Position numbers and translations under genes: made by a program | Notes under the pieces: generated by a model | Told to the model about the DNA's origin: nothing | The model's database searches: none | Seen by the model: only the letters and a program-made list of their open reading frames with translations | Assembly (NCBI GenBank): GCA_964576535.1 | Contig: CAZNWB010000001.1 | Span: 66,082 to 130,081 of the forward strand | Length of the DNA stretch: 64,000 nt | Source: an uncultured bacterium | Lineage (GTDB): Bacteria > Methylomirabilota > Methylomirabilia > Methylomirabilales > 2-02-FULL-66-22 | Direction of reading: 5' to 3' | Shown: piece by piece, positions 14,861 to 42,000 of the stretch | Layout: each line of letters starts with the position of its first letter | How positions within the stretch are numbered: position 1 is the first letter of the stretch

Positions 14861-14996
14861 AAAGGCGTTCGAGTGTTCGGTCGTTCGGGCGTTCGGCTGT
14901 TCCTGGAACCACCGAACTACCGGGACCCACGGCACCGCGGTCCAGCGCCTCGCGGACCGCGACGGCGTGGGTGCCCCGAACCACCGAACGCTTTTC
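14861..14996. repeat. GTTCGG-family element with nested GC-rich core hairpin (variant apex)
   Basis: Termini are AAAGGCGTTCG.. and ..CGAACGCTTTTC, with GTTCGNNN units and a core at 14920-14981. It fills the lpxL-like/waaF gap. Confidence 0.85.
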
Positions 14997-15023
14997 ATAC
15001 TGCGGTCCGCCGCTCCGACGATC

Positions 15024-16001
15024 CTAGCGGGGGCCGAAGGGTGCCTCCACGTCCTGCGACGTTGGCGCCTCCTGCTCCGTCTCGAGTCTCGGATCCAGCG
15101 GCAGGTGCGTCTTCCACCGCCGGTGGACCCAGAACCACTGGTCCGGCCGCTCCCGGATGAACGCCTCGATCGCCGCGGTGAACCGAGCCGTGTTCACCAC
15201 CAGGTCCGCCCGGAGGTCCCCGCTCCGGTGGATGGGCACCTCTGGGGCGATCTGGACCCGGTACTGGCCGCGGGCTTCTCGCATGATGGCGATGGGCACC
15301 ACGGCGGCGCCGGACCGGATGGCGATGAGGGCCGGCCCGGAGGCGGTCGAGGCGGGCCGGCCGAAAAAGGGAACCACCACGCCTTCCTTTTCGCTGATGT
15401 GCTGGTCGATCAGGATGCCGACGGTTTCCCCGCGCCTGAGCACCTGGAGGATCGCCTGGATTGCGTCCCGCTTCCGGATCACCCGGTTCCCGCCACGCTC
15501 CCGAAGGGCCGTGAGCAGATCGTCGAGTCGAGGATTGTCCAGGGGTCGGGCCACCATGTGGGTCGGTCCCAAGTACAGGGAGGCGAACAGCGGCAGGAGT
15601 TCCCAGGGGCCGAAGTGCGCCATGATCACGAGCACGCCCTTGCCCCGTTGCCGTGCCGAGAGCAGCCGTTCGAAACCGTCCAGCTGGATGGCGCCCGCCT
15701 CTCGCCCGCTGAGGAGTCTGTCCGAACGGGCCACGTCCACGACCGTCCGCCCCAGGTTCTCGAACACACGGCGCGCCAGCGTCTCAACCTCCGAGGGCGA
15801 GAAACGGTCCGGGAACGCTCGCGAGAGATTCTCGACGGCGACGGTCCGGTGCCGTCGGTCCAGCCCGAAGGCCAAACGCCCGGCCCCCTCCCCCAGGGCG
15901 TAGACGACCGACTCGGGAAGCCAGGCCAAGACCCGCGCAAGACCCGCGACCAGCGCCCATTCGGCCAGGGCCACCGGGCTCCATCGGGATCGCTTAGCCA
16001 C
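15024..16001 (-). CDS. Lipid A biosynthesis late acyltransferase (LpxL/HtrB family)
   Basis: GTG at 16001 overlaps the lpxK stop. ..IMAHFGPWELLP.. (HX4E-type), ..DQHISEKEGVVVPFFGRPA.. and ..WFWVHRRWK. Confidence 0.85.
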   Translation of the reverse strand: MAKRSRWSPVALAEWALVAGLARVLAWLPESVVYALGEGAGRLAFGLDRRHRTVAVENLSRAFPDRFSPSEVETLARRVFENLGRTVVDVARSDRLLSGREAGAIQLDGFERLLSARQRGKGVLVIMAHFGPWELLPLFASLYLGPTHMVARPLDNPRLDDLLTALRERGGNRVIRKRDAIQAILQVLRRGETVGILIDQHISEKEGVVVPFFGRPASTASGPALIAIRSGAAVVPIAIMREARGQYRVQIAPEVPIHRSGDLRADLVVNTARFTAAIEAFIRERPDQWFWVHRRWKTHLPLDPRLETEQEAPTSQDVEAPFGPR

Positions 16002-17121
16002 GCGCCCCCCCAACGGACCGGGTGAGAAGCGCGTCGAGAGCTTCCGCACCCTCGATGATCTCCAGGTCCACGCAGAGCACCCGGAGCGGTCGGTCAGGCC
16101 GTCCACCCCCGTCCCAGGCGGGCATGCGAAGCGCGTCCTTCTCCGTCGTGATGACCAGGTCGGCCCGGGCCTCGTCCGCACCCCGCCCCACCCGCGCGAG
16201 GTCGGCCGGGCCGTACGGATGGTGGTCCGGGAATGTCAGCGTCCCGGCCACGACCGCCCCGAGGTCCGTGAGGGTACGGTGGAAGGCCTCGGGGTTGGCG
16301 ATACCGCTCACCGCCAGGACCCGCCGACCCCCCAGTGAGGCGAGTGGGTATTCCTCACCCTCAGGGAAGCGCATCAGACGCGCCGGCCGATGCCGCGCGA
16401 GAACCTGGAGCGCGCCCGGGACGATCTGCTCCAGGCAGCGCCGCAGACCGGGAAGATCCGACGCCTGGTCCGACCGGGTCAAAATAATCGCCTGGGCGCG
16501 ACAAAGCGCAGCCACGGGTTCCCGCAGGCGCCCCCGCGGCAAGAGCCGGCCCCCCCCGAAGGCATCGCTCGCGTCCACCATGACAAGATCCAGATCCCGA
16601 TGGAGTTGCCGGTGCTGAAAGCCATCGTCGAGCAGCAGGACGTCCAGCCGGAAGCGGCGCAGGACCTCCTGCCCCGCCTGGAACCGGCTTGCCCCCACCA
16701 CCACCGGAACGCCGGGGAGGCGCCGGGCGAGGAGCATCGCTTCGTCGCCCACGGCTTCCCAGCGGGAACGAACCTCCCGGTCATCGGCCGCCAGCGTCAC
16801 CCCCGACACGTGGCGTCCGTACCCACGGAGGAGGATCCCCGCGGCGTGCCCCCACCCGCGGAGCCGCTGGGCCAGGGCGATGGTGCAGGGCGTCTTGCCC
16901 GTTCCCCCCACCGTCAGGTTGCCGATGGAGACCACCGGGCACGGCAGGCGGCGGATTCGCCGCAGCCCCGAGGCAAAGGTCCAGTCTCGGACCTCCACCC
17001 CGACTCGGTATCCGGCCGTTGCCGCCGCCAGCACCGCCAGCCAGAGCCGCTGCGCCAGCGTCGGTGCCGGCGACCGCATCGAGCCCAGGGAGTAGGCCTT
17101 GACCGCGGTCCCCAGACTCAC
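15994..17121 (-). CDS. lpxK: Tetraacyldisaccharide 4'-kinase
   Basis: ..VVSIGNLTVGGTGKTP.. P-loop and the expected length. GTGA overlap with the waaA stop. Confidence 0.92.
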   Translation of the reverse strand: MSLGTAVKAYSLGSMRSPAPTLAQRLWLAVLAAATAGYRVGVEVRDWTFASGLRRIRRLPCPVVSIGNLTVGGTGKTPCTIALAQRLRGWGHAAGILLRGYGRHVSGVTLAADDREVRSRWEAVGDEAMLLARRLPGVPVVVGASRFQAGQEVLRRFRLDVLLLDDGFQHRQLHRDLDLVMVDASDAFGGGRLLPRGRLREPVAALCRAQAIILTRSDQASDLPGLRRCLEQIVPGALQVLARHRPARLMRFPEGEEYPLASLGGRRVLAVSGIANPEAFHRTLTDLGAVVAGTLTFPDHHPYGPADLARVGRGADEARADLVITTEKDALRMPAWDGGGRPDRPLRVLCVDLEIIEGAEALDALLTRSVGGARG

Positions 17122-18386
17122 AGCACCGCCTCCAGCAGGTCCACCGTCCGCCGACCGGCGCCCCGGTGGGTCCCCACGATGGCCCGGCCACTCTCCCCCA
17201 TCCGTTCTGCGACATTGGGCTCCCGCAAGAGGCGCAGGGTCTCCTCTGCCAAGGCCCCGGCCTCCCGCACCTGGACGCCCGCCTGGTGCTCCAGGAAGAG
17301 GCGGGCCATCTCCGCAAAGTTTCCCATGTGCGGCCCGAACAGAACGGGCCTCGCATGGCTTGCGGGCTCGAGGATGTTGTGTCCGCCGATGGGAACCAGG
17401 CTGCCGCCCACGAACACCACCGTTCCGGCCGCGTACAGCCGGGCCAGCTCGCCCATCGTGTCCACCAGGATAACCGCGGCCCCGCCCTGCGTGGGCAGCC
17501 GGCTCCGATGGATCCAGGGAAGCCCCTCGCGGTCCAGAAGCGCCTCCACCTCCCCGAGCCGCTCCGGATGCCGCGGGGCCAGGAGCAGCGTGAGGTCGGG
17601 CACGGATCGGCGGACCGCCTTGAAGGCCTCCAGGACCGGCCCCTCCTCTCCCCGGTGCGTGCTGCCCGCCACGAGGACCGGCCGCGAGAGCGGGAGGCCC
17701 AGCATCTGTCGGACCGCCGGTCCGTCAGCCCCGCGTTCCGCGGGTCCCGCCCCGGCCAGGTCGAACTTGAGATTGCCGACCACGTGCACCCGCTCGGGCG
17801 GCGCGCCGAGGTCCAGGATGCGCCGCGCGTCTTCGGGCGTCTGCATGCAGAACAGGCGAATCCCCTGGAGGACCCGCCCAAAGAATCTCCGCACTCGCCG
17901 ATAGCGGGGGAAGGAGCGCTGGGAGATCCGCCCATTCACCAGGACCACGGGGATATCACGGGCCGAGCAGGCGCGCAGGAAGTTCGGCCAGATCTCCGTC
18001 TCGGTGAGCAGGACGGCCCGGGGCCGAAGCCGATCCAGCGCCTGGCGGACGGCCCAACCGAAATCCAGGGGGAAGAAGACGAACTGCCTCGCCGGGAGCC
18101 GCCCCTCGGCGACGCCGCGGCCTGTGTCCGTGACCGTCGAGACCAGCAGCGGCAGGTCCGGCCGGCGCGCGGCCAACTCTCGCGCCAGCGGGGTCGCCGC
18201 CATCACCTCGCCGACCGACACCGCGTGCAGCCAGACGGGTGGCACGGTTCCGGTCCAGGCCGGAACGCGCCCCAGCCGCTCGCCAAGTCCCCGGCGGTAC
18301 TTTCCCCGCAGGATCGCCTGGGTGGCAAAGGTCGGGAGCCCCGCCACGAAGAAGGCCCCGAGTCCGAGACTGTAGAGCCAGTACAC
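17118..18386 (-). CDS. waaA: 3-deoxy-D-manno-octulosonic acid (Kdo) transferase
   Basis: ..WLHAVSVGEVMAATPLAREL.. and full-length GT30 similarity. Confidence 0.93.
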   Translation of the reverse strand: MYWLYSLGLGAFFVAGLPTFATQAILRGKYRRGLGERLGRVPAWTGTVPPVWLHAVSVGEVMAATPLARELAARRPDLPLLVSTVTDTGRGVAEGRLPARQFVFFPLDFGWAVRQALDRLRPRAVLLTETEIWPNFLRACSARDIPVVLVNGRISQRSFPRYRRVRRFFGRVLQGIRLFCMQTPEDARRILDLGAPPERVHVVGNLKFDLAGAGPAERGADGPAVRQMLGLPLSRPVLVAGSTHRGEEGPVLEAFKAVRRSVPDLTLLLAPRHPERLGEVEALLDREGLPWIHRSRLPTQGGAAVILVDTMGELARLYAAGTVVFVGGSLVPIGGHNILEPASHARPVLFGPHMGNFAEMARLFLEHQAGVQVREAGALAEETLRLLREPNVAERMGESGRAIVGTHRGAGRRTVDLLEAVL

Positions 18387-18395
18387 GGGTCACTC

Positions 18396-18506
18396 AAAAG
18401 CGTTCGGTAGTTCGGTGGTTCGGTTGTTCCACGGTTCCGCGGCTCGCCAGTTCGACCGTTTCGGTACAACCGAACTACCGAACGCTCGAACTCCCAAACG
18501 TTTTTC
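18396..18506. repeat. GTTCGG-family octamer hairpin
   Basis: AGCGTTCGGTAGTTCGG at 18399 pairs perfectly with CCGAACTACCGAACGCT at 18470. The right end overlaps the last codons of the DUF374 gene. Confidence 0.8.
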
Positions 18507-19185
18507 GCCGCCTAGTGGCGGCGACCGTGTCCGCCTCCGCCACCAGGGCATCCAGCCGGTCGGCCAGCAAGGTCTGGAACTTCTCCATGGCGACCTTGTC
18601 GGCATCCGCCGGCACGTAGAGGGGTTCGCCCCAGACGTACACCCCCCGCGCAAACGGATGGGGGATCAGGAACTGGTCCCAGCTCCTCATGAGTGTCCGC
18701 GGCCAGGCCCCGAACGCCACCGGCAGGATCGGCATCCCCGTCAAACGCGCCAGATCGATGACGCCCGACTTGACCCGGTGCCGCGGCCCCTTCGGCCCAT
18801 CCGGAGTGATCGCCACGTGGCGGCCATCCCGAAGCGCCTGGATGAGCTGCTTGAAGGCGAGGACCCCGCCCCGGGTGGCGGAGCCGCGCACCACGCTGAA
18901 CCCCAGCCACTGAGCCGCGCGTGTGAGGTACTCCCCGTCCCGGTGCTGGCTGATGAGGAGGGTGGCCGACCGGCCGGGATACACGAATGGCATCATCAGG
19001 AGCCGCCCATGCCAGACGGCCACGATGGCGCGTTCCCCCTTGGCGAGGCACGCGTCCACGTGCTCGCGCCCGATGTCAGCCCGGCGCAGCGTGGCGGCGA
19101 CCGCCCGCAACAGCCGGCTGGCCATCCACGGCACCGCGATCAGGGTGAGGTTCCAATCGCGGGGAGAGAACCTGCGCTCGCCCAT
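18475..19185 (-). CDS. DUF374 (lysophospholipid-acyltransferase-like) protein
   Basis: ..IVAVWHGRLLMMP..LISQHRDGEYL..VVRGSATRGG..ITPDGPKGP.., the characteristic DUF374 pattern. Confidence 0.85.
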   Translation of the reverse strand: MGERRFSPRDWNLTLIAVPWMASRLLRAVAATLRRADIGREHVDACLAKGERAIVAVWHGRLLMMPFVYPGRSATLLISQHRDGEYLTRAAQWLGFSVVRGSATRGGVLAFKQLIQALRDGRHVAITPDGPKGPRHRVKSGVIDLARLTGMPILPVAFGAWPRTLMRSWDQFLIPHPFARGVYVWGEPLYVPADADKVAMEKFQTLLADRLDALVAEADTVAATRRRKTFGSSSVR

Positions 19186-19200
19186 GTGACCATCAACGCA

Positions 19201-20346
19201 TCAGGCCGCCGGAATCAGCGCCAAGACCTCACGGGCCGCCCGTTCCGCCGCTCCAGGGGTTCCCAGACGGCTGCCAACCTCGACCAGCTTGGCGCGCATC
19301 CACGCCTGGCGCTCGGGCGATCCCAGGATCTCCGAGGCCGTCGCCGCCAGATGCTCGGGGGTCGCCTGGAACTGGATCAGTTCCGGGACGATTTCCTCAC
19401 CCGCCACCAAATTGGGCAGGCCGATGAACCGGACCCGGACCAGGCAGCGCGCCAGCAGCCACGACAGCCAGCCCAGACGATATGTGATAATCATGGGAGT
19501 TCCCAGGATGGCCGCCTCCAGGGTCACCGTCCCCGAGACCGCCAGGAGGAGATCCGCCGCCCGCATCACCTCGGAAGTCCGTCCCTGCACCACCGTGACC
19601 GGCACGGGCGAGGACCGCACTGCCTCCCTCACCGATCCGTCATCCAGCGTCGGCGCGAGAGCCAGAACTCCCCGAAGGTCCGGCCGTCTGGCCGTGAGGC
19701 GCGCGGCCGTCTCCAACAGGAGAGGCAGGTGCCGCCGGATCTCCGCCTGCCGGCTCCCCGGGAGCAGGCCCAAGACCAGCGAGGCATCCGGCAGGCCCAG
19801 GGAGGCGCGGCACGCCTCGCGCGATGGCACCGCCGCGAGCACATCCAGAAGAGGATGGCCGACAAACGTCACGTCAACTCCCGCCTGCCGGTACAGGGGC
19901 TCCTCGAACGGGAACAGGACGAGCATCTTCCGCACCAGGCGCCGGATCGTGCGGATCCGCCCGCGCCGCCAGGCCCAGATCTGGGGGCTGATGAAGTAGC
20001 AGACCGGGATGCGCAGGTGATGGGCCGTGCGCGCCAGGAGGAGGTTGAAATCCGGAAAGTCAATGCAGATCAGCAGGGCTGGCCGGACAGCCCGGAGGCG
20101 CTTCCGCAAGAGGTGCAGGGCGGTCGAGAGCACCCGTCGCTTCTCCCACACCTCCGTGAGGCCCACGACGGCGGCCTGCCCCGCATCGGCGAGGAGGTGC
20201 ACCCCGGCCTCTCGCATGCGCGGGCCGCCCATGCCCTCCACAATCACGTGTGGCGCCAGTCGCCGGAGCGCCTCGACCAGCCGTCCCCCATGCAGATCCC
20301 CCGAGGCCTCGCCCGCCACGATCATGATCCGGGTCGCCGCGGGCAC
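19201..20346 (-). CDS. lpxB: Lipid-A-disaccharide synthase
   Basis: ..IMIVAGEASGDLHGGRLVEAL.. The start is uncertain (GTG 20346 or ATG 20325). The track start at 20412 lies inside a repeat. Confidence 0.88.
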   Translation of the reverse strand: MPAATRIMIVAGEASGDLHGGRLVEALRRLAPHVIVEGMGGPRMREAGVHLLADAGQAAVVGLTEVWEKRRVLSTALHLLRKRLRAVRPALLICIDFPDFNLLLARTAHHLRIPVCYFISPQIWAWRRGRIRTIRRLVRKMLVLFPFEEPLYRQAGVDVTFVGHPLLDVLAAVPSREACRASLGLPDASLVLGLLPGSRQAEIRRHLPLLLETAARLTARRPDLRGVLALAPTLDDGSVREAVRSSPVPVTVVQGRTSEVMRAADLLLAVSGTVTLEAAILGTPMIITYRLGWLSWLLARCLVRVRFIGLPNLVAGEEIVPELIQFQATPEHLAATASEILGSPERQAWMRAKLVEVGSRLGTPGAAERAAREVLALIPAA

Positions 20347-20355
20347 ACCGTGACC

Positions 20356-20469
20356 GGGTGGATTAGTGGACTGGTGAATCAGTGGATCCGTGTTCTGGCC
20401 CACCGTCCTCACGTCCCCCTACTCCACCAATTCACCGATCCACCCATGCACAAGCCCACCGATCCACTC
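20356..20469. repeat. Octamer-word inverted arrays (GGTGGATT AGTGGACT GGTGAATC AGTGGATC // ..ATTCACCG ATCCACCC .. ATCCACTC)
   Basis: Period-8 arrays of RGTGRAYY and their complement read directly. It lies between the oxidoreductase stop and the lpxB start. Confidence 0.7.
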
Positions 20470-20475
20470 TGCTGT

Positions 20476-21414
20476 TCAGAGGCGCTCAATGATCCGCGTG
20501 GCAACGGCGACGGCCTCGCGTCCCGCCTCTCCCGCGACCATGGGTGGACGGCGAGTCCGCACGCTGTCCACGAAATCGATGAGCTCCTGCCGCAGCGGCT
20601 CGACCCGCGCCACCGGGATATCCACCCGGGCCAAGCGCGACCTCCCCGGGCCATCGCCGGGCGTCTGCCGGTATAGGTGCAGCTCCTGGGCGGCATAGTC
20701 CAGGACGAAGGAGGTGTCCCGCTGGAAGACGCGGATTTTCCGCAAGCGCTCGCCGCTGACCCGGCTCGCGGTCAGGTTCGCCACGCAGCCCGAGGCGAAT
20801 TCGATCCGGGCGTTGGCGATATCCACCTGATCGGAGACCACCGGAACACCCACGGCACTGACCGCCGTGACCGGTGACTTGACCAGGGTCAGGACGATGT
20901 CAATGTCATGGATCATGAGGTCCAGAACCACATCCACATCGGTGCCCCGCCCCGGGAACGGGCCCATCCGATGGACCTCGATAAAGCCGGGATCCTGAAC
21001 CTCCCTCTCCAGGGCTTGCACGGCGCCGTTGTACCGCTCGCTGTGACCCACCTGGAGAATGCGGCCATTCGTCGCGGCGGTGGCGACCAGATCGTCCGCC
21101 TCGGCCAGCGTCCGGGTCATGGGCTTCTCCACCAGGACGTCGCACCCCGCTCGGAGGAAGTCCCGAGCGATCCCGTGGTGGTCCACCGTGGGCACGGCTA
21201 CGCTGACGGCATCGACCTTGCCCAGCAGGTCGCGATAGTCCGCCAGCGCCCGGACCCGGAGCGTGCCGCCGACCTGGCGCCGAGGCCCCTCCGCGATGTC
21301 CACCACCGCGACGAGTTCGACCCCCGGCAGCTCCGTGTAGATCCGCGCGTGATGCTGCCCGAGGTGACCCACCCCGACTACCGCTACCTTGACCTTTTGC
21401 TCACCCGCGTCCAT
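20476..21414 (-). CDS. Gfo/Idh/MocA-family NAD-dependent oxidoreductase (GnnA-like candidate)
   Basis: ..VKVAVVGVGHLGQHHARIY.. Rossmann N-terminus and ..VLVEKPM.. motif. It is embedded between lpxI and lpxB. Confidence 0.85.
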   Translation of the reverse strand: MDAGEQKVKVAVVGVGHLGQHHARIYTELPGVELVAVVDIAEGPRRQVGGTLRVRALADYRDLLGKVDAVSVAVPTVDHHGIARDFLRAGCDVLVEKPMTRTLAEADDLVATAATNGRILQVGHSERYNGAVQALEREVQDPGFIEVHRMGPFPGRGTDVDVVLDLMIHDIDIVLTLVKSPVTAVSAVGVPVVSDQVDIANARIEFASGCVANLTASRVSGERLRKIRVFQRDTSFVLDYAAQELHLYRQTPGDGPGRSRLARVDIPVARVEPLRQELIDFVDSVRTRRPPMVAGEAGREAVAVATRIIERL

Positions 21415-21425
21415 GGCGTCTCATA

Positions 21426-21520
21426 AGAGCGTTCGACGGTTCGGTCGTTCGGTGGTTCGGTTGTACCGCAGCACTCAGGGAACCACCGAACTGCCGACCC
21501 ACCGAACAGCCGAACGCTCT
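21426..21520. repeat. GTTCGG-family octamer hairpin
   Basis: Perfect 10-nt termini AGAGCGTTCG / CGAACGCTCT. Units are CGGTTCGG TCGTTCGG TGGTTCGG. Confidence 0.85.
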
Positions 21521-21526
21521 TGGCGT

Positions 21527-22327
21527 TTAGCCGGCCACCACTGCCAGATCCAGTTCGTCCGCACCGGCTACGAACCGATCCCGATCCAGGAGCAGGGTGC
21601 GGCCCGCATCCAGCGCCAGGGCCGTGGCACTGGCATCCCGCAGGGCGGAGAGCGTCTCCGGTCCAACGGTGGGAAGGTCAAAGCGAAGGTCCTGATCGGG
21701 CCGGCTCACCTTGACGATGACCACCCCGCCGCGGCCCAGCTCCCCACCCCGCCGGATGGCGGCGTCCGTTCCCTCGACTGATTCCACGGCCAAGACGGTT
21801 CCGTGCTTCAGCACCACGGTCTGCCCGATTCGGAGCGCCGCAATCTGTCGCGCGATCTCCCGGCCGAGCACGATGTCCTGCTGCTCCCGGGCCGTCGGGC
21901 CCCGCCGGGTGAGCTGTCCGGCCGGGACCAGGAGCGGGCCCAGGAACCGGGGAGTCTCCAGGACCCGGATCCCCTCGGCGGCCAGGGCCTCCACGAGGGC
22001 CTCCAGCAGGCTGTCCCCGCGCAGGTCCCGGGCTCGGAGCAGGACCTTGGCCCCCAGCAGGTCCGGACGCGCCCGGGAAAAGAGGCGGGTAATCTCCACC
22101 TTCCCCAGCAGGACGACCTCGGTCACCCGCTCGTCGCGAAGGTGACGGATCACAGCCCCGAGTTGGGCGACGCGGACCCAGTGGATGGCGTCCACCTGCT
22201 CGGCCAGCCGGGGATCGGTCTCCTCTCGGACGGCCACCGCCACCACACGCAGACCCTGGGCGCGCGCTTCGGCCGCCGCGACGAAGGGCAGCCGCCCGCT
22301 CCCCGCGATGATCCCCAGCGTCTCCAT
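21527..22327 (-). CDS. lpxI: UDP-2,3-diacylglucosamine pyrophosphatase LpxI (DUF1009)
   Basis: METLGIIAGSGRLP.., ..GQTVVLKHGTVLAVESVEGTDAAIRRGG.. and ..DLRFDLPTVGPETL. Confidence 0.88.
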   Translation of the reverse strand: METLGIIAGSGRLPFVAAAEARAQGLRVVAVAVREETDPRLAEQVDAIHWVRVAQLGAVIRHLRDERVTEVVLLGKVEITRLFSRARPDLLGAKVLLRARDLRGDSLLEALVEALAAEGIRVLETPRFLGPLLVPAGQLTRRGPTAREQQDIVLGREIARQIAALRIGQTVVLKHGTVLAVESVEGTDAAIRRGGELGRGGVVIVKVSRPDQDLRFDLPTVGPETLSALRDASATALALDAGRTLLLDRDRFVAGADELDLAVVAG

Positions 22328-22333
22328 CCGTGA

Positions 22334-23110
22334 CTACTTGCTGATCCCGCGCTGGGACCGCTTGATGAAGTCGATGAAGTGCTGCACGGCGGGGGATCCG
22401 CTGATCTCCTGCTCCAGCTTTTCCAGCGCCTGGGAGGTGTTGAGGCCGGAGGCGTAGACGATCCGGTAGGCCTGCTTCAGGGCACGGATCTCCTCGGTCG
22501 AGAAGCCGTCACGCCGCAGCCCCACCACGTTGAGGCCAAAGGGCTTGGCCCGGTTTCCCTGGGCCTTGAGGTAGGGCGGGATGTCCTGCCCCACGCCGGA
22601 GCACGCGCCCAGGAAGGCGTACTCGCCGATCCGCACGAACTGGTGGATGCCGGTCATGCCCCCGATCACGGCGCAGCGCCCGATCTCGATATGGCCGGAC
22701 AAGGCAGCCTGGTTGGCAATGATGACGCGTTCCCCCAACTGACAGTCGTGGGCCACGTGGACGTACGCCATGATGAAGCAGTCCGGACCGACGGTCGTCA
22801 CCCCCGAGCCCCCCGTGCTGGCGCGGTGGATCGAGGCGAACTCCCGCACGAGGGTCCGGTCCCCGATAACGACCCGGGTGGGTTCCCCGCGGTATTTCAC
22901 GTCCTGGGGCGGCGACCCGATGATGGCGTGGGGGCCGATGCGGCACTCGGCCCCGATCTCTGTCCAGCCCTCCAGGACCGTGTGGCTGGCGATGATGGAC
23001 CGGGGTCCCACTCGAACATGGGGGCCGATCACGACATATGGGCCGATCTGGACGCCCTCCTGCAGTTCTGCACCCGGATCGACGACCGCGGTGGGGTGGA
23101 CGGTAACCAT
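22334..23110 (-). CDS. lpxA: Acyl-ACP--UDP-GlcNAc O-acyltransferase
   Basis: Left-handed beta-helix hexapeptide repeats and ..IHPTAVVDPGAEL.. Position fabZ-lpxA. Confidence 0.95.
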   Translation of the reverse strand: MVTVHPTAVVDPGAELQEGVQIGPYVVIGPHVRVGPRSIIASHTVLEGWTEIGAECRIGPHAIIGSPPQDVKYRGEPTRVVIGDRTLVREFASIHRASTGGSGVTTVGPDCFIMAYVHVAHDCQLGERVIIANQAALSGHIEIGRCAVIGGMTGIHQFVRIGEYAFLGACSGVGQDIPPYLKAQGNRAKPFGLNVVGLRRDGFSTEEIRALKQAYRIVYASGLNTSQALEKLEQEISGSPAVQHFIDFIKRSQRGISK

Positions 23111-23119
23111 GCGACCCTC

Positions 23120-23590
23120 CTACACGGTGAGGGGCATGTCGACCGGCTGGGAGGGATCGCGATCGACCACGATGGAACTCATCTCCGCCTCTGCCACGAG
23201 CTTGCCTTCCACGTAGGCGGCGCCCTTAAACCGGCACATCTGGCGGCGGAGCTGGAGGATCTTCACCTCAAATCGGATCTGATCCCCGGGGACCACGGGG
23301 CGCCGGAACCGGGCCCAGTCAATCCCGGTGAAGTAAATGACTTTCTTCTCGGCCCGCGCGTCCAGGCTGCGCATCAAGAGCACTCCGCCGACCTGGGCCA
23401 TACCCTCGAGGATGAGGACGCCCGGCATGATGGGGTGGCCGGGGAAGTGGCCGGGGAGGAATGGCTCATTTATGGTGACATTCTTGATCCCGACCACCCG
23501 CTTGCCCAACTCCAGCTCCAGGATGCGGTCCACCAGGAGGAAGGGATAGCGATGCGGCAGGATCTCTTCGATCTCCTTGGGTCCGAACAT
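23120..23590 (-). CDS. fabZ: 3-hydroxyacyl-ACP dehydratase
   Basis: ATG at 23590 gives [39 protein letters not shown]. Confidence 0.95.
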
Positions 23591-23609
23591 TGCCAATCCT
23601 CCCCTCCCC

Positions 23610-24635: not shown

Positions 24636-24670
24636 TCCACCTCCGCGTCAGCGCTCGGCCATCCGTGGCC

Positions 24671-24710: not shown

Positions 24711-24713
24711 CCG

Positions 24714-31054: not shown

Positions 31055-31061
31055 TCCAAGC

Positions 31062-31146
31062 CAATTTCGAATATCGAATGTCGAATGTCGAATGTCGAAC
31101 CGCCCATTCGATATTCATGATTCGACATTCGTCTGTTCATCATTCG
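31062..31146. repeat. Heptamer-word hairpin (AATTTCG AATATCG AATGTCG x3 // ATTCGAT ATTCATG ATTCGAC ATTCGTC)
   Basis: Read directly. The right arm reaches the lolC stop codon at 31140. Confidence 0.8.
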
Positions 31147-32420: not shown

Positions 32421-32473
32421 GTGATCGCTACTCCTCAGGTATCCCCGCGTCCAATTCGTCTTTCACGAACAAA

Positions 32474-32597
32474 GCCAATGCAAAACGGACAACGGACAAC
32501 TGACAACCGGCCATCTGCCGAACTTGACCGGTTGTCGGTTGTCAGTTTGACACTTGAAATTACCCCCGCAAGGGACCGGTTGTCGGTTGTCAGTTCG
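32474..32597. repeat. GTTGTC-family element (one left arm, two right-arm copies)
   Basis: GCCAATGCAAAACGGACAACGGACAACTGACAACCGG, then CCGGTTGTCGGTTGTCAGTT at 32529 and again at 32576. Confidence 0.8.
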
Positions 32598-32601
32598 TCA
32601 T

Positions 32602-32630
32602 GTGAAAATGCGAGGGCTAGACGCCCTCGC
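32602..32630 (-). terminator. Intrinsic terminator of lysS with the stop codon in the loop
   Basis: Minus strand: GCGAGGGC-GTCTA-GCCCTCGC followed by ATTTTCAC. Confidence 0.6.
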
Positions 32631-34107: not shown

Positions 34108-34134
34108 TCGTCCTCCGGATGATCGGGAGGCCAG

Positions 34135-34253
34135 CTCTCAGCCATCAGCCACGGAAAAGGCGAGAGCGGGAAATTCGGAAGCTGAAACCGATTGCCCTCG
34201 TTGCCCGCCTGCAAGCTGAAAGCTGAAAGCTGACCGCTGATCGCTGAACGCTG
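34135..34253. repeat. GCTGA-family element in the lysS 5' leader
   Basis: CTCTCAGCCATCAGCC at 34135 and six tandem NNGCTGA heptamers at 34212-34253 are inverse-oriented partners. Confidence 0.75.
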
Positions 34254-34273
34254 AGATTGCGTAACGTGCCGCG

Positions 34274-34302
34274 ATTATAGGGAGGGGTGGGAGGAGTGTC
34301 AA
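34274..34302 (-). promoter_or_regulatory. Perfect consensus sigma70 promoter TTGACA-N17-TATAAT
   Basis: Minus strand: TGTCAA at 34297-34302 and ATTATA at 34274-34279, with a spacer counted as 17 nt. About 165 nt upstream of the lysS start. Confidence 0.75.
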
Positions 34303-34320
34303 GCCAACGCCCCAACCCAA

Positions 34321-34452
34321 CGTGTTCGGTGGTTCGAGAGTTCGGTGGGTGGGTCGTTCGGCGCATCCCGATGAACCACCGGGACCCACGGCACCGCGGT
34401 GGATTCCCACCGCCGTGGCGTGGGTGCCCCGAACACTCGAACGATCGAACGC
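34321..34452. repeat. GTTCGG-family element with nested 56-nt core hairpin
   Basis: GTTCGGTGGTTCGAGAGTTCGG.. left, ..CGAACACTCGAACGATCGAACG right, core at 34379-34434. Confidence 0.85.
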
Positions 34453-34473
34453 CTCTGGCTGGCATTGGCCAGG

Positions 34474-34716
34474 TCAACCCTTGACCCTGAGCTGGGACTC
34501 GTTCTGGGCGATAAATTTCCTGATGTCGTCCGCCATGCCGAGGAGCTTCAGCCACTGCTCCTTGTAGAGGGTGACGGGAAACCGCCCCAGACCATAGACC
34601 GATACCGCGCCTTTCTCGCTCACCTTGATGCTCGTTGCCCGGGTCACCTTGGCCTTGAGCGCCTGGTTCTCGGCCCGCAGCCGCTCCAGCTCCGCCCGAA
34701 GATCGTCGTCCCCCAT
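34474..34716 (-). CDS. Small hypothetical protein (80 aa; N-terminal coiled-coil)
   Basis: ATG at 34716 is preceded by GGGGGGAGGTG. The composition is coding-like (..VSEKGAVSVYGLGRFPVTLYKEQWLKLL..). No family recognised. Confidence 0.6.
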   Translation of the reverse strand: MGDDDLRAELERLRAENQALKAKVTRATSIKVSEKGAVSVYGLGRFPVTLYKEQWLKLLGMADDIRKFIAQNESQLRVKG

Positions 34717-34780
34717 GGCTCACCTCCCCCCATGCTAACCCGATTCCGAGAATATTAGCCGCCAAGGCGCCAACCTCTGA

Positions 34781-34891
34781 ACTGGCAATCAGGCAATCCG
34801 GCAACCTGGCAATCGGGAGTTCCCAGTTGCCGGGTACCCTCCGAGTGCGCCTGGTTGCCAGATTGCCCAGTTGCCTGGTTGCCCCTGATTC
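34781..34891. repeat. Octamer-word inverted arrays (ACTGGCAA TCAGGCAA TCCGGCAA CCTGGCAA // ..GGTTGCC AGATTGCC CAGTTGCC TGGTTGCC)
   Basis: Read directly between the prfB stop and the small gene. Confidence 0.75.
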
Positions 34892-34942
34892 GTGGCGACC
34901 TTGGCGCACCAACGGCGTTGCCGTTGGTACCGGCGGTTTGCG

Positions 34943-36050
34943 CTAGCTTGCCTTCTCGGGCGGCTTGAAGAGAACCGCCTCGATGAAACGGTCCAGGTCC
35001 CCGCCCAGGACCGCGGTGACGTTCCCCGTCTCCTCGCCCGTCCGATGATCTTTGACCAACTGGTACGGGGCCAGGACGTAGGACCGAATCTGGCTGCCCC
35101 AGGCGATGGGCGCCTTTACCCCCTGGAGCTTGGCCATCTCCTCGTCCTGCTGCCGCTTGTAGTGGTCGTAGAGCCGGGCCCGCAGGACCTTCATGGCCAT
35201 GGCCTTATTCTTGTGCTGCGAGCGCTCGTTCTGGCAGGTGGCCACGATCCCGGTGGGCAGGTGGGTGATGCGGACGGCGGAGTCGGTCACGTTGATGTGC
35301 TGCCCGCCGTGCCCCCCGGCCCGGAACGTATCGATCCTGAGGTCTTTGTCCTCGATCTTGATCTCGATGTCGTCGGAGATCTCGGGATACACGAAGACCG
35401 ACGCGAAGGAGGTATGCCGCCGCTTGCTGGCGTCGAAGGGGGAGATGCGCACCAGTCGGTGCACCCCGATCTCGGCGTGCAGGTGCCCGTAGGCATAGGG
35501 GCCTGTTACAGTCACGGTGGCATTCTTGATCCCCGCTTCTTCGCCCTCCAACAGGTCGATGACCTCGGTCGTGAACCCTTTCGACTCGACCCAGCGAAGG
35601 TACATTCGCAGGAGCATCTGCGCCCAGTCCTGGGACTCGGTCCCGCCGGCGCCGGGGTTGATGCTCAGGATGGCGTTCCCCTTGTCATATTCGCCCGAGA
35701 GGACCGTCTGCAACTCCAGGGCCCGGACCTGTCGCGTGAGCTCCTTGAGTCCATTGGAGACCTCTTGGAGCGTTTCGACGTCCTCCTGGTCCGCGGCCAG
35801 ATCCAGGAGCTCCCGGTGATCTCCCAGGTCTTTGACCAGGCCGGCATGCTGGTCCAGGGTCTGGCGAAGGTTCCTCGTCTCTTTCAGGACCTTCTGGGCT
35901 CTGTCCGGATCACTCCAGAACTCCGGTGCCCCCGTGGCCGCCTCGAGACTTGCCAGCCGAGCGGCCTTGCCGGGCAAGTCAAAGATACACCCGGAGCTGT
36001 TCGACCTTTCGCTGGAGCTCGTCAATCGTGCGTTGCAGATCAGGAATCAT
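34943..36050 (-). CDS. prfB: Peptide chain release factor 2, programmed +1 frameshift (36050..35982 joined to 35980..34943)
   Basis: ATG at 36050 gives MIPDLQRTIDELQRKVEQLRVYL, then the in-frame TGA in TAT CTT TGA C. The +1 frame continues DLPGKAARLASLE.. through SPF and GGQ (..AGGHGGQHINV..). Confidence 0.93.
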
Positions 36051-36099
36051 CGCTCCCTCCTCACGTTAGGGACAAAGTGACATAGCCTAAAGGCACGCT

Positions 36100-36180
36100 C
36101 CCGTCCCCGGCTCCTCCGCTCCTCGGCTCCTTGTCTCGGTCTTCCTCTGCCCCTCTGCCCCTTGTCTCTGTGTCCCTTCT
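36100..36180. repeat. Period-8 pyrimidine (plus) / purine (minus) tract
   Basis: Minus-strand reading: AGAAGGGA CACAGAGA CAAGGGGC AGAGGGGC AGAGGAAG ACCGAGAC AAGGAGCC GAGGAGCG GAGGAGCC. No inverted partner is seen. Confidence 0.55.
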
Positions 36181-37760
36181 CACTGGGCACGAGCCCGCCA
36201 GAGGGCGAGTCCGTATGCAGCCAGGAACGCCAGGCAGGCCCACGCCAGGATGTCCCCGTATCGCGTGTACAGGGTTTGACGCTGTCGTAACCGGATCGTT
36301 CCCAAGAGGCTCGCCTCGGTGAAGATCCCGGTGTGAGCCAGGATTTCCCCGGTGGGGGCAATCACGGCCGTGACACCGGTGTTGGCTGCCCGCACGAGGT
36401 ACGTCCCATTCTCCACGGCCCGCATGGCGGCCATGGCCAGGTGCTGGTAGGGCGCGCCGCTTCGGCCGAACCAGGCATCGTTGGTGATGTTGACCAGGAA
36501 GGCCGCCCCGCGGTCCACGAACTCCCGCACCTCACCCGGGAAGATGACCTCGTAACAGATCATCACGCTGAATTGCACCCCGTCCAGGGAAAAGACGGTG
36601 GCGGCCCGTCCCCGACCGAAGTCCCCGATCCCCACCACGAGCTTATCCAGGAAAAAGAAGATCGTCCGGAGCGGCACGTACTCGCCGAAGGGAACCAGGT
36701 GGCGCTTGTCGTAGCGGCCGCCGATCTCCCCGTCAGGGCGCAGGAGGAAGGCCGTATTGTACAGCAAGGCATCCTCCCCCAGGTCGGGGCTGCCGGTGAG
36801 CGTCGGGATGCCGACCTCTGCGATGAAGCGCCGCACGCGTGCGCCAAGCTCGGGCTCGCGTCGCAACAAGAACGGCAGGGCCGTCTCTGGCCAGACGATC
36901 AGCGCCGGCTTCTCCTCCGCCACCCGGCGGGCCAGCCGCTCGTAGATGTCCAGGGTAGCTGCCTGGTAGCTCCGGTCCCACTTCAGCGACTGGTCAATAT
37001 TCCCCTGGAGGAGCCCCACGCGAACGGTGGGACCGCCTGTGGGATCCCGCCAGATGGCCCGGGCATAGGCCAGCGTGCTCCCCAGGGCGAGAATCGTCAG
37101 CCCCACCGGAAGGAGCGCACCCCGCCGCCGGCTCCCCCCCACCCGCCCGCGCCAGGTTCGGGCCAGAAGGTCTGCGATCGTCCCATTCACCAGGACCACG
37201 AGAGCGGAGATCCCGTACACCCCGACCGCCGATGCCAGCAGGCGGATCGTGGGCTGCCGGTACTGGCTGTACCCGAGGAGCGCCCACGGGAATCCCGAGA
37301 ACAGATGGCTCCGCAGGAACTCCAGGGCTGTCCACAGCCCCGCAGCCACCAACGGGACACTCCCGCCTGGCAGCCGCAATCGGTGCTGCCCGGCCGACAG
37401 GAGCCAGGTGAAGGCCGCCGTATAGGCCCCCAGGACCGCGCAAAGGAGCAGCAGCGCCACCAGGCTCAGCCCAAGCGGCATCCGGCCATAGGTGGTCATC
37501 GTATTGACGACCCACCAGATGGTCCCCAGGAAGAAGCACAGGCCGGACGTGTATCCCAGCCATGCCGCCTGGCGCGGCACGACCCCCTCGAGCGCGAGGA
37601 ACAGGGGCACCAGGGCGACGAAGCTGACCAGGCCAATGTCCCAGGGTGGAAAGGCCGCCGTGCAGAGGACACCGCTCCCGGCCGCGAGACCGAAGCGCAC
37701 CGCTCGCGATATCTGCGGCGCACCCGCCCACGGTCTCGCGATCACACCCACCCGAGCCAT
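36180..37760 (-). CDS. lnt: Apolipoprotein N-acyltransferase
   Basis: N-terminal polytopic domain plus a C-terminal CN-hydrolase domain (..LIVWPETALP.., ..ICYEVIFP..). Confidence 0.9.
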   Translation of the reverse strand: MARVGVIARPWAGAPQISRAVRFGLAAGSGVLCTAAFPPWDIGLVSFVALVPLFLALEGVVPRQAAWLGYTSGLCFFLGTIWWVVNTMTTYGRMPLGLSLVALLLLCAVLGAYTAAFTWLLSAGQHRLRLPGGSVPLVAAGLWTALEFLRSHLFSGFPWALLGYSQYRQPTIRLLASAVGVYGISALVVLVNGTIADLLARTWRGRVGGSRRRGALLPVGLTILALGSTLAYARAIWRDPTGGPTVRVGLLQGNIDQSLKWDRSYQAATLDIYERLARRVAEEKPALIVWPETALPFLLRREPELGARVRRFIAEVGIPTLTGSPDLGEDALLYNTAFLLRPDGEIGGRYDKRHLVPFGEYVPLRTIFFFLDKLVVGIGDFGRGRAATVFSLDGVQFSVMICYEVIFPGEVREFVDRGAAFLVNITNDAWFGRSGAPYQHLAMAAMRAVENGTYLVRAANTGVTAVIAPTGEILAHTGIFTEASLLGTIRLRQRQTLYTRYGDILAWACLAFLAAYGLALWRARAQ

Positions 37761-38536
37761 ACCAGGACGTACAGGACCGGACCCGCAAACATCAGGCTGT
37801 CCAGGCGATCCAGCACCCCACCATGCCCGGGGATGAGGCTCCCGCTATCCTTGGCAGCGGCACCGCGCTTCACCACCGACTCGCAGAGATCCCCGATGAT
37901 CCCTGCGGCTCCAAGCATGAGTCCGACCCATGCCGCCTTGTCCCAGGAAAGCCTCGGCCAGACCTGGCTGCTGCCCGCCAGCGCCACCACGACGGTGGCC
38001 GCCAGGCCGCCCAGCGCGCCCTCGACCGTCTTCTTGGGGCTGATGCGGGGCGCGAGCGGCCGACGCCCGAACCGGCTCCCGAGATAGAACGCCCCGGTAT
38101 CTCCCGCCCATATCGCGAAGGCCAGGTAGTAAATGAACTGCCTCCCTTCGGGGAGTGCTCGCAAGAGGCTGGCGTAGCTCAGTAACCCCCCCACATAGGT
38201 CACGCCCAGGACAATCCACGCCCCCTGCAGCAGGCCGACCCGGAACCCCGCCGGAACCAGCGTGGCGCGGACCAAGGCCACGCCCCCCACCGCTGCCCCC
38301 ACCCCTGCCAGCCCACCTCCCCAGGTGACCGCCGTGTGCCACGCCAATGCGCCCAGGATCGTCACGAGGGAGAGCCCGGGATCGGTCCCCTCCGGACACA
38401 GCCGGGAAAATTCCCAGGCCGCCAGGGCAATGACCAGGCCCACCAGCAGGGTGAAGTGTAAGGCGGAGCCGAAGTGGACCAGGAGGAGAAACGGGGGGAT
38501 GAGCAACAGGGAGCTGAGGATCCGTTGACGATGCAT
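37742..38536 (-). CDS. cdsA: Phosphatidate cytidylyltransferase
   Basis: Polytopic, with the C-terminal signature ..SVVKRGAAAKDSGSLIPGHGGVLDRLDSL. Confidence 0.9.
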   Translation of the reverse strand: MHRQRILSSLLLIPPFLLLVHFGSALHFTLLVGLVIALAAWEFSRLCPEGTDPGLSLVTILGALAWHTAVTWGGGLAGVGAAVGGVALVRATLVPAGFRVGLLQGAWIVLGVTYVGGLLSYASLLRALPEGRQFIYYLAFAIWAGDTGAFYLGSRFGRRPLAPRISPKKTVEGALGGLAATVVVALAGSSQVWPRLSWDKAAWVGLMLGAAGIIGDLCESVVKRGAAAKDSGSLIPGHGGVLDRLDSLMFAGPVLYVLVWLGWV

Positions 38537-38579
38537 GACCTGGCCGTCCGCTGTCCCACACCGGGCGCGCAGAGCGGAC

Positions 38580-39134
38580 TCAGAACTCCATGATCTCTTT
38601 TTCCTTCTTCTCCACGAGCTCGTCCAGCCCCTTGATCATGCGGTTGGTCAACTCCTGGGTCTGGTCCATGCCCTTGCGCACGCCGTCCTCGGAGAGCTGC
38701 TTGGTCTTCTCCAGCTTCTTGAGCGCCTCGTTGGCGTCGCGGCGAATGTTGCGGATGACCACCCGCCCCTCCTCCGCCATCTTGCGCACGACCTTCACCA
38801 GCTCCTTCCTGCGCTCTTCGGTCAGGGAAGGGACCGCCAGCCGGATGACCTTGCCGTCGCTGGTCGGGGTGATCCCCAGGTCGGATTTCAGGATCGCCTT
38901 CTCGATGACCGGAATCAGCGAGGCATCCCAGGGCTGGATGGTGATCAGGCGCCGCTCCGGCGTCGCCAGGTTGGCCACCGCCTTCAGGGGAGTGGGCGTG
39001 CCGTGGTAGTCCACGACGATGCCATCCAATAACGCCACCGAGGCCCGGCCCGTCCGGACGCTGTTGAAGTCCTTCAGGGTCGCCTCTGTGGCCCGCTTCA
39101 TGTCCTGCTCGGCCTTCCGGAGGACGTCCTGCAT
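38580..39134 (-). CDS. frr: Ribosome recycling factor
   Basis: Full-length RRF similarity (..LDGIVVDYHGTPTPL.., ..IRNIRRDANE..). Confidence 0.96.
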   Translation of the reverse strand: MQDVLRKAEQDMKRATEATLKDFNSVRTGRASVALLDGIVVDYHGTPTPLKAVANLATPERRLITIQPWDASLIPVIEKAILKSDLGITPTSDGKVIRLAVPSLTEERRKELVKVVRKMAEEGRVVIRNIRRDANEALKKLEKTKQLSEDGVRKGMDQTQELTNRMIKGLDELVEKKEKEIMEF

Positions 39135-39152
39135 GGGTGCTCTCCCCCCTCC

Positions 39153-40795
<1,643 letters not shown>

Positions 40796-40804
40796 GAGCG
40801 TTCC

Positions 40805-41689
40805 TCACTGAACACCGGCCGGGGTCGACTGTGCGGATGGGGGTTCCGGCCGCGGGGCTTCAGTCCCCGGGGACCCCGCCTCGCGGGGGGACCCACTTGT
40901 GGGTGCCCCCGCGGCTGCCGCTGCCCCTGGGGTCCCCTCCGCGCCTGATTTGGCGGCGGTACCGGCGGTCATCGCCTCCTCAAGTCCGGCCACGCCAGCC
41001 TTGGCGGCCTCCCCGCGCCCCTCGATGATGGTATCCGCCAGCCGGGACGTGAGCAGCCGGACGGCCCGGATGGCGTCGTCGTTGCCTGGGATGGGAAAAT
41101 CGATCTCGTCGGGATCGCAGTTGGTATCCACCACCGCCACCACCGGGATGCCCAGGCGGCGCGCCTCAGCCACCGCGATGCGCTCCTTACTCGGGTCGAT
41201 GACGAACACCGCTCCCGGGAGGTTCTCCATGGCCTTGATCCCCATGAGCGCGTTGTTCAGTTTCTCCATCTCCCGCTCGAGCCGCAGGATTTCCTTCTTG
41301 GAGAAGGCCTCGAACTTTCCGGTGGCCTGCATGTCCTCGAGTTGTTTGAGACGCGAGATGCTCTTGGTGATCGTCTGGAAGTTCGTCAGGGTCCCGCCCA
41401 GCCACCGCCGGTTGACGAAGAACATGCCGGCCCGCGCGGCCTCATCCTGGATCGTATCCACCGCCTGCTTCTTGGTGCCCACAAACAGCACCTTTCCGCC
41501 CCGCGCCGCCATGGCGCGCAGGAAGGCCTCCGCCTCCTGAAACTTCTTCAGGGTCTTTTGCAGGTCAATGATGTAGATCCCGTTTCGCTCCCCAAACAGA
41601 TACTTCTTCATCTTCGGGTTCCACCGCTTTGTCTGGTGCCCGAAGTGAACGCCGGCTTCCAAGAGTTCTTTGATCGTCACCGTGGCCAT
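40805..41689 (-). CDS. rpsB: 30S ribosomal protein S2 (with about 60-aa Ala/Gly/Pro-rich C-terminal tail)
   Basis: [27 protein letters not shown].., conserved throughout the core. Confidence 0.96.
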
Positions 41690-41824
41690 CGCATCCCTCC
41701 CAGTCCGGTTGATCCGCCGCGCGCCTCCCCTCCCACCGGATCACCCCGCCAAAGGCGGGGCGACACCCCCGATGGAATCCGCGCGCGTGTGAATTTGGCC
41801 CGCGATCGCCGCGGACCGATTCGT

Positions 41825-41853
41825 CTTATATCACACAGCTGCAGGGGCAGCAA
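41825..41853 (-). promoter_or_regulatory. Candidate promoter TTGCTG-N17-TATAAG for rpsB
   Basis: Minus strand: CAGCAA at 41848-41853 and CTTATA at 41825-41830. A structured leader of about 130 nt follows (CCCCGCC-TTTG-GCGGGG). Confidence 0.55.
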
Positions 41854-41861
41854 GTGTCGTC

Positions 41862-42000
41862 GAAAAGCGTTCGACTGTTCGGCAGTTCGGGGCACCCACG
41901 CCACAGCGGTGGGTATCCACCGCGGTGCCGTGGGTCCCGGTTGTTCCCCCGAACCCAAAACGACCGAACCACCGAACGGTCGAACCACCGAACGCTTTTC
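41862..42000. repeat. GTTCGG-family element with nested 56-nt core hairpin (inverted orientation)
   Basis: Perfect 12-nt termini GAAAAGCGTTCG / CGAACGCTTTTC. The core at 41885-41940 is the reverse complement of 34379-34434, with 2 differences. Confidence 0.85.

Follow-up and report, generated by a model that had tools for sequence, protein, structure and literature searches.

An imperfectly palindromic hairpin core as an optional module of mosaic intergenic repeats in Methylomirabilota

The stretch of DNA analysed here, 64 kb long and referred to below as the window, comes from an uncultured bacterium of the Methylomirabilota (NC10), has a G+C content of 66.6%, and contains six palindromes whose arms are made of tandem 8-nt units (el1 to el6; Table 1). 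In these GTTCGG elements, three to four copies of GTTCGGNN lead to a short GTTCC...GGAAC apex, which is followed by three to four copies of NNCCGAAC. Three of the six (el2, el5 and el6) carry in addition a long hairpin, the core, which is the subject of this work and is 56 nt in length, or 62 nt when it has a long apex. All six elements are flanked by co-directional genes and start 6-35 nt past the upstream stop codon, except for el3, which overlaps the upstream gene. The genes beside the core-bearing elements are ordinary housekeeping units such as argJ, whose stop codon (42005) lies on one side of el6, and rpsB, which lies on the other. El2 is bordered by a lipid A acyltransferase gene, which stops at 15024, and by a heptosyltransferase/HAD gene, and el5 by a small open reading frame (ORF; stop at 34474) and a perfect sigma-70-like promoter. 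In el2, four GTTCGGNN units are followed by the GTTCC-GGAAC apex, CCGAAC, the core, two CCGAAC units and a terminal GCTTTT.

The original prediction placed three copies of a hairpin in the window, two of them differing at 2 of 56 positions with one of the differences in the loop, and these sequences and coordinates have been verified. The copy at 34379-34434 and the reverse complement of the copy at 41885-41940, which is placed in the left arm of el6, mismatch at position 27 (T/A) and at position 36 (C/T). Position 27 is within the 4-nt loop and position 36 is unpaired, opposite C17 in a C.C or C.T mismatch, so that no base pair is hit by either difference. The minimum free energy fold of the short core,.(((((((((((.(((.(((((((....))))))).))).)))))))..))))..., amounts to -41.4 kcal/mol, and the hairpins of the three copies to -41.4, -41.4 and -42.9 kcal/mol, the last value being that of the variant at 14920. 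The core at 34379 has a 21-bp stem with two conserved mismatches, G13.G40 and C17.C36, and a CCGAAC unit at its end, and a metagenome contig (L120) carries a copy that is identical to it, flanks included. The third copy, at 14920-14981, shares exactly the first 22 and the last 18 nt with the other two and, as had been claimed, has a different apex that is still paired. This apex, GCGGTCC-AGCGCCTCGC-GGACCGC, is longer than the short one. At positions 36-38 of the same copy CGT is changed to GAC, and the middle helix loses two of its three pairs and gains one.

The 21-mer arm has three exact matches in the window, against 0.03 expected from shuffles allowing up to 3 mismatches, and the 18-mer arm has three, against 0.29 expected in shuffles, so that chance is ruled out. 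A possible fourth copy, at 12931-12951, has 3 mismatches, lies in coding sequence and is missing the partner arm, and was discarded as a chance match. A scan of the window with the family covariance model rendered no extra or eroded copies of the core.

Nesting of the hairpin in GTTCGG elements, which was also part of the original prediction, holds for every core recovered in this work, and with a single type of junction. Across the family the junction is constant, ...GAAC-NN-[C/T]CGGGA-hairpin-CCCCGAAC..., and is located in one arm of a host that repeats GTTCGGNN in one of its arms and NNCCGAAC in the other, with one to five of these 8-nt units in tandem per arm. In the window, the arm holding the core is invariably the one whose units read CCGAAC when taken on the strand of the core. 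Folded as RNA, a composite element forms a three-way junction from which the core, at about -41 kcal/mol, projects as a side branch. The energies of these folds range from -81 to -85 kcal/mol (z -5.6 to -7.2). The coreless elements of the window form long interrupted hairpins (z -3.8 to -6.0).

Table 1. Coordinates of the elements, cores and other features. Positions are those of the window unless preceded by the L number of a related locus; scores in bits are from the family covariance model.
Feature	Position	Strand	Remarks
el1, GTTCGG palindrome without core	4037..4121		6 nt past a stop codon
el2, GTTCGG palindrome with core	14858..14998		three-way junction, -81.2 kcal/mol, z -5.6; palindrome of tandem units at 14867-14989
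el3, GTTCGG palindrome without core, empty allele	18402..18491		compared with L117 and L153
el4, GTTCGG palindrome without core	21431..21515		ortholog in L102 is core-bearing
el5, GTTCGG palindrome, core adjoins apex	34324..34450		-83.1 kcal/mol, z -6.1
el6, GTTCGG palindrome, AAAAGC to GCTTTT	41862..42002		-85.3 kcal/mol, z -7.2; palindrome of tandem units at 41869-41993
Core, short-apex type, loop ATTC	34379..34434	+	87.1 bits
Core, short-apex type, loop ATAC, T at position 36	41885..41940	-	86.9 bits
Core variant, long apex, disrupted middle helix	14920..14981	+	63.9 bits
Promoter-like site TTGACA-17-TATAAT	34274..34302	-	12/12 matches
Second hairpin module sites	L069:4140-4272, L060:790-830, L073:1381-1450, L134:5081-5140, L072:4288-4444
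Y1_Tnp protein, 343 aa	L116:980-2150 (= L125:6850-8025)		PF01797

At least 80 copies of the core, with 50 distinct sequences, were recovered from 621 kb of related DNA, none of them within a gene, and among the matches listed all come from genomes and metagenomes of Methylomirabilota/NC10. The genome collection was scanned for exact matches to the pattern CCCACGGCACC-N8-38-GGCGTGGGTG, and among the matches listed those in GTTCGG context were from five Methylomirabilota/NC10 assemblies only (METI01, JACPAT01, JACQXP01, JBIOJT01 and CAZXXV01). Matches in Streptomyces, Pseudomonas and other organisms outside NC10 are in coding sequence without GTTCGG context, and were dismissed as chance. A scan of metagenomes with an inner-stem anchor, GGCACCGCGGTGG-N4-CCACCGC-N-GTGG, rendered a further 46 copies, with GTTCGG context in all of them. 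The plasmid and phage collections gave no match to the core. Four of the Methylomirabilota loci are syntenic with the window (78-82% nucleotide identity), which therefore derives from a related genome of this phylum. Of the metagenome contigs, L117 and L153 match the window at 88-98% identity, and L120 matches the region of el5 at 84-90%. A covariance model built on 36 copies found in 282 kb only those 36 and their antisense images, with none degraded, indicating that the family is discrete and homogeneous. The cores are alike in at least six species-level genomes.

Variation among the copies is mostly found at unpaired sites. In a set of 57 unique copies of the short type, position 1 (C/T) differs from the consensus in 35% of the copies, the loop positions 25-28 in 18-44%, and position 36 (C/T/A) in 19%; the apical pairs 22/31 and 24/29 differ in 5-9% and all remaining positions in 7% or less, so that no stem position exceeds 9%. 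The outer stem, which is unanchored in the metagenome sample, has nine one-sided substitutions among ca. 970 cells there and no double change. The mismatches G13.G40 and C17.C36 are kept throughout the alignment, G13 and C17 being invariant and G40 present in at least 90% of the copies; positions 13, 17 and 40 are inside the anchors of both scans, and in the five unselected copies that test them the three bases are all kept in four. The lower stem is near-invariant even where the coding DNA of the genomes has diverged by 20-25%. Positions 14-23 of the core (34392-34401, for example) contain a perfect 10-bp palindrome of their own, CACCGCGGTG, that includes a CCGCGG site and is limited to the left arm, since the C17.C36 mismatch prevents it in the right one; it could be a candidate site for a protein that binds duplex DNA, in one arm only.

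Over the 50 distinct sequences, 97.3% of the cells in the stem are paired. In the lower 18 pairs there are no double changes, two wobble cells and 19 disrupted ones; the apical three pairs have 9 disrupted cells and 15 with double changes, which may stem from some five or six events, since cells are not independent of each other. Conservation of structure rather than sequence, as had been proposed from the window copies, is therefore borne out only at the three apical pairs and their loop and fails for the lower 18 pairs: the stem is conserved as sequence, and only its tip as structure. Moreover, the change from TGG/CCA to TCC/GGA, which had been taken for a compensatory one, did not come about stepwise. 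The apex exists as two discrete modules: GCGGTGG-N4-CCACCGC is the short one, and GCGGTCCGC-N6-GCGGACCGC is the long one, of which the 14920 copy is a variant. The two are swapped as wholes, as a comparison of L013 and L080 reveals. Disrupting changes, with ca. 28 cells, are not rarer than compensatory ones, with 15, which is the outcome under which the original prediction would have its structural interpretation fail.

These data make it very unlikely that the core is a structured small RNA, or a cis-regulatory RNA module, selected for its fold. Such an RNA would account for the very stable hairpin and its high proportion of paired cells, as well as for the clustering of changes in the loop, and the position of the elements after stop codons implies that they are transcribed as 3' untranslated regions. 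However, 18 of the 21 pairs show no covariation, and the core is optional at orthologous loci. Its orientation relative to the upstream gene is 19 forward to 21 reverse in the 40 unique copies with a called upstream stop, although the two strands differ in their mismatches and loops. The Rfam search that the original prediction had suggested gave no match to a known family: the covariance models rendered none in the whole window at gathering thresholds, and for the el5 region, at E values up to 10, the best matches had E of 2 or more, far under threshold. Random orientation and dispensability, together with a stem that for the most part does not covary, thus argue against a dedicated RNA, and the discrete strand-specific small RNA that had been considered is unlikely.

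Comparison of relatives ca. 90-98% identical, which differ in the presence of the core, the arm that holds it or its apex, indicates that the core is turned over as a unit. L072 is filled and L092 lacks the core, with a clean 58-nt indel and 95% identity on the alignable side. The site of el3 is empty in the window, and in L117 and L153 the 56-nt core replaces two units, CCGAACGCTCGAAC, in an otherwise nearly identical element. Conversely, el2 is filled in the window and the orthologous element of L117 and L153, with flanks 95% identical, has no core; el4 is empty and its ortholog in L102 is filled. The core of el6 is in the left arm, on the minus strand, and its orthologs in L093 and L025 are in the right arm, on the plus strand; a flip between arms also distinguishes L066 from L073. 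At a same site in L013 and L080, which are 92-98% identical, the core has a short apex in the former and a long apex in the latter, and the L013 element holds a second, inverted core in its other arm. Inverted doublets of this kind within one element were found only in L013 (235-385) and L047 (3866-4006), the remaining copies being singletons. The minimal difference between filled and empty alleles (CCG/GGA...CCCCG/AAC) consists of 50 nt between CCG repeats plus a change of one 8-nt unit. The variant A36 is shared by copies at six separate loci, a recurrence suggestive of copying.

The region 14995-15080, next to el2, does not align with L117:2690-2736, the DNA on either side being 90-95% identical (L117/L153). 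It includes the last ca. 19 codons of the lipid A acyltransferase gene, whose C-terminus appears to have been remodelled by the turnover of el2.

Whole elements are also exchanged. At some orthologous sites a GTTCGG element, with or without a core, in one genome has an unrelated palindrome as its counterpart in the other. Between flanks 92-98% identical, the GTTCGG element of L080 (5338-5457) is replaced in L013 (2049-2222) by a long G+C-rich palindrome, and the GTTCGG element at 2184-2412 of L067 corresponds to an ATCAGC array in the window (48463-48531). Gene-end elements are swapped wholesale between relatives.

One explanation for the uniformity of the core is that it is a functional site selected by the host, which binds a host protein, as E. 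coli BIMEs bind IHF or gyrase, or which strengthens or tunes the termination and 3'-end stability of certain transcripts. Such a site would fit the extreme conservation, across genomes diverged by 20-25%, that is seen in the lower stem and at the unpaired positions G13/G40 and C17. It would also fit the identity in sequence between the cores of el6 and L093 in spite of flanks just 78% identical, and the fact that cores are always within terminator-like elements after genes. We nevertheless regard it as rather unlikely, given that the core is dispensable, flipped or apex-swapped among relatives 90-98% identical (el2, el3, L072/L092 and L013/L080), that half of the GTTCGG elements of the window have none, and that an unrelated palindrome replaces the whole element at other orthologous sites.

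It could also be the case that the core spreads passively, with no dedicated enzyme, by ectopic gene conversion, template switching and inversion among GTTCGG arrays, the complementarity of its arms being kept by quasipalindrome correction. Every gain or loss is accompanied by the gain or loss of a unit, which array-based exchange would account for, and flips between arms are compatible with recombination between inverted arrays. In L025 and L093, which have 97% genome identity, the arms are scrambled in spacers and unit number, with ca. 60% identity by eye, and the core has been retained, with differences at loop positions and position 36 only. On the other hand, concerted evolution would let species drift apart, yet the cores are the same in the six or more species-level genomes, and quasipalindrome correction should have removed the G.G and C.C mismatches, yet these are conserved. 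A same sequence with the same two mismatches in species 20-25% diverged speaks against concerted evolution of a purely passive kind and points to recognition by a protein, and we consider spread by passive means alone unlikely.

The core is best read as a REP-like imperfect palindrome, which some members of a mosaic family of intergenic repeats in Methylomirabilota carry and others lack. As to its nature, we lean somewhat towards a REP/BIME-like DNA hairpin module, maintained in a sequence-specific way, that spreads among terminator-like repeats; of the options raised in the original prediction, a protein or nuclease recognition hairpin is still the leading candidate. The core would act at the level of DNA, as a folded single strand or a cruciform, and its uniformity would be kept through recognition by a protein specific for both sequence and structure. 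REPIN-RAYT systems suggest, by analogy, that this protein would most plausibly be a HUH/Y1 (RAYT-like) transposase that binds hairpins. The spread of the core among GTTCGG elements might be due to such a transposase, or else to recombination or gene conversion via the flanking 8-bp arrays, and any effect on termination or on the stability of mRNA 3' ends would be a by-product of the added stable branch.

Several observations weigh against this interpretation. A HUH/Y motif scan and tblastn found no cognate transposase for the core in the 621 kb. Filled and empty alleles do not show a clean insertion with target duplication, and each gain or loss comes with a change in unit number (58 nt as 50 + 8; 56 nt in exchange for 14 nt), which favours recombination over cut-and-paste or copy-and-paste transposition and suggests that recombination between arrays is responsible for at least part of the movement. 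Most copies are singletons rather than doublets of the REPIN type, and el5 has no T-runs. In addition, both public samples were drawn with exact-match patterns that anchor positions 12-17 and 39-40, so that part of the invariance at the anchored positions is built in by the sampling.

The sole Y1_Tnp gene in the 621 kb is that of L116/L125 (PF01797, E 6.7e-7), which lies 3.5 kb from a core. Its flanks bear a perfect 27-bp inverted repeat, GACGTAGCGCAGTTATGAAGGATATTT, and arrays of ca. 12-nt GGCAGGGGGGACG units (GGGGACG), not cores. Homologues of its product, at least 7,997 in number, also have a PF08299 (Bac_DnaA_C) domain and are named RayT by JGI; the two that were examined both have an end repeat, GGGGACGTAGCGCA, and no GTTCGG arrays or cores. 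The Y1_Tnp-DnaA_C family was accordingly dropped as a seeder of the array palindromes, since it has family-specific ends of its own, and the L116/L125 gene looks like a member of an insertion sequence-like family with arrayed ends, unrelated to the core. A search for genes flanked by one-sided GTTCGG arrays, which could represent an autonomous parent, rendered none that was convincing.

With regard to the hosts of the core, GTTCGG elements across the family are located 5-35 nt past stop codons. The outward flanks of 75 unique elements have the consensus G-C-T-T-T-T on both sides, and at least three T are present in positions 3-8 of 105 of the 150 flanks, against 6.5% in a background of random hexamers. 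Flanking genes, called with a crude GC3 filter, are co-directional in 26 cases, convergent in 5 and divergent in 1, the last depending on a doubtful gene call. The hosts thus have the features of an intrinsic terminator, namely a stable G+C-rich stem, a T-run directly after it and a location just past a stop, and are missed by a simple terminator scan because their loops are longer than 8 nt. Judging from their post-stop position and from the GCTTTT on both strands, they look like bidirectional intrinsic terminators that may also insulate transcription units from each other. In el3, the best upstream ORF (18475-19200, minus strand) ends about 16-17 nt inside the outer CCGAAC units, and the repeat therefore provides the final codons and the stop of that gene.

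Integron attC sites, too, are imperfect palindromes found behind genes; their ends read AAC...GTT, their extrahelical bases are conserved and their apex varies. The elements described here bear a superficial likeness to them in their conserved structure, variable apex, GTTCGG/CCGAAC units and position after ORFs. However, the units depart from the GTTRRRY/RYYYAAC boxes, having a C where the first R should be; neighbouring elements are separated by 3-13 kb, in a syntenic setting of housekeeping genes and not in cassette arrays; and there is no integrase among the six genes flanking the three core-bearing elements. Box sequence and gene context effectively refute this identity, to which we give almost no weight.

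The closest likeness is to the REP/REPIN-RAYT systems of Pseudomonas and Enterobacteria (PMC3116915, PMC3337134), which are, as the core is, high-copy extragenic imperfect palindromes with a conserved core. REPINs are conserved hairpins with compensatory changes within their less conserved part (PMC3116915), and in the present family variation and compensatory changes are likewise limited to the less constrained part of the hairpin. Both also persist vertically in a lineage, are located after genes and form occasional inverted doublets. The core differs from them in its length (56-62 nt, against 20-40 nt in a typical REP), in occurring mostly as singletons within another repeat instead of as free doublets, in the absence of a flanking RAYT gene for it from the 621 kb, in gains and losses that involve unit-number changes and are not clean insertions, and in belonging to another phylum.

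E. coli BIMEs and rhizobial RIMEs are also intergenic mosaics, in which palindromic units and optional motifs keep fixed positions relative to each other; they are located where transcription units end, at the 3' side, in combinations that vary by locus. The present elements share with BIMEs a palindromic unit with optional motifs in fixed order, intergenic and after genes; they differ in having arms in which a 6-nt motif is repeated in tandem every 8 nt, and in that the optional module is a long hairpin forming a side branch. Elhai et al. are said to have described, in 2008, cyanobacterial small dispersed repeats (SDR) nested in tandem heptamer (STRR) repeats. These too are tiny hairpin-forming repeats inserted in tandem short-unit and other repeats, with mobility deduced from presence or absence at orthologous loci, and are not known to encode an enzyme. 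SDRs are 21-27 nt long, with a sequence unrelated to that of the core, and their host arrays are not known to form inverted terminator-like palindromes, unlike the GTTCGG hosts. The Correia/NEMIS elements and inverted DUS pairs of Neisseria can terminate transcription in both directions and are interspersed palindromic repeats just after genes that end in T-runs. In contrast to the elements reported here, those of the Correia type are bounded by defined inverted repeats and duplicate a TA target, and DUS pairs serve as uptake signals; neither contains 8-nt arrays with a nested conserved hairpin.

A literature search found no description of this repeat family. It is a previously undescribed family of a well-known kind, the interspersed mosaic palindromic repeats located after genes, and is unusual in combining a host of inverted arrays of 8-nt period with a long invariant hairpin as an optional side branch.

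Being abundant, and present in an uncultured and environmentally important phylum, the family offers in its filled, empty, flipped and apex-swapped natural alleles material for the study of small hairpin repeats and their mobility and of the remodelling of terminator regions. Assemblies of metagenomes are broken by such elements, which can also be mistaken for small RNAs or CRISPR-like repeats and which mark the limits of transcription units. Were there a dedicated enzyme, it would represent a new hairpin-specific DNA tool; if there is none, the family would show how far recombination alone can reach in spreading and maintaining a sequence module.

The optional modules of the GTTCGG arrays are the core, with a short or a long apex, and a second hairpin, GAATCCGCC-N4-GGCGGA, each of which may be present or not. 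The second one, a small module that extends to GAATCCGCC-N4-GGCGGAWWC, was observed inside some GTTCGG or TCGAAC arrays (Table 1), so that the hosts bear more than one type of optional insert. In two chimeric arrays (L153:7197-7260 and L077:7535-7590), GTTCGG units run straight into arrays of other units (ATTCGAWAT; GGTTCAA/GTTCGAG, with a 7-nt period), which suggests recombination between array families.

Other palindromes made of tandem units of 7-8 nt are present between genes in the window, at 1812-1891, 20356-20467, 31063-31131, 32484-32595, 34784-34884, 43251-43340, 47504-47644, 48463-48525 and 62765-62843. Their units are GAATGCG, TCCACCAA, CGAATGT, TGTCRGT (at three loci), TGATTGCC, CTGTCAG/GCTGACG and ATCAGC; where their position was checked they are just past stop codons, and A/T-runs are present at the ends of at least two. 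The general form of gene-end structures in this genome seems to be the inverted array of short units. The window contains at least eight unit families, including GTTCGG, GAATGCG, CGAATGT, TGTCRGT, ATCAGC and TGATTGCC, which interchange at orthologous sites of closely related genomes. A broader and more doubtful proposal is that the core is cargo of an undescribed class of modular, exchangeable two-way terminators made of inverted arrays of 7-8-nt units, written and rewritten by an array- or hairpin-specific enzyme for which the 56-nt hairpin would be the recognition or priming site.

The promoter-like site of Table 1 lies directly past el5 on the transcribed strand, ahead of a gene for a class II aminoacyl-tRNA synthetase. 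Between the two, at 34209-34254, there is a 7-nt CTGAAAG array of 6.6 copies.

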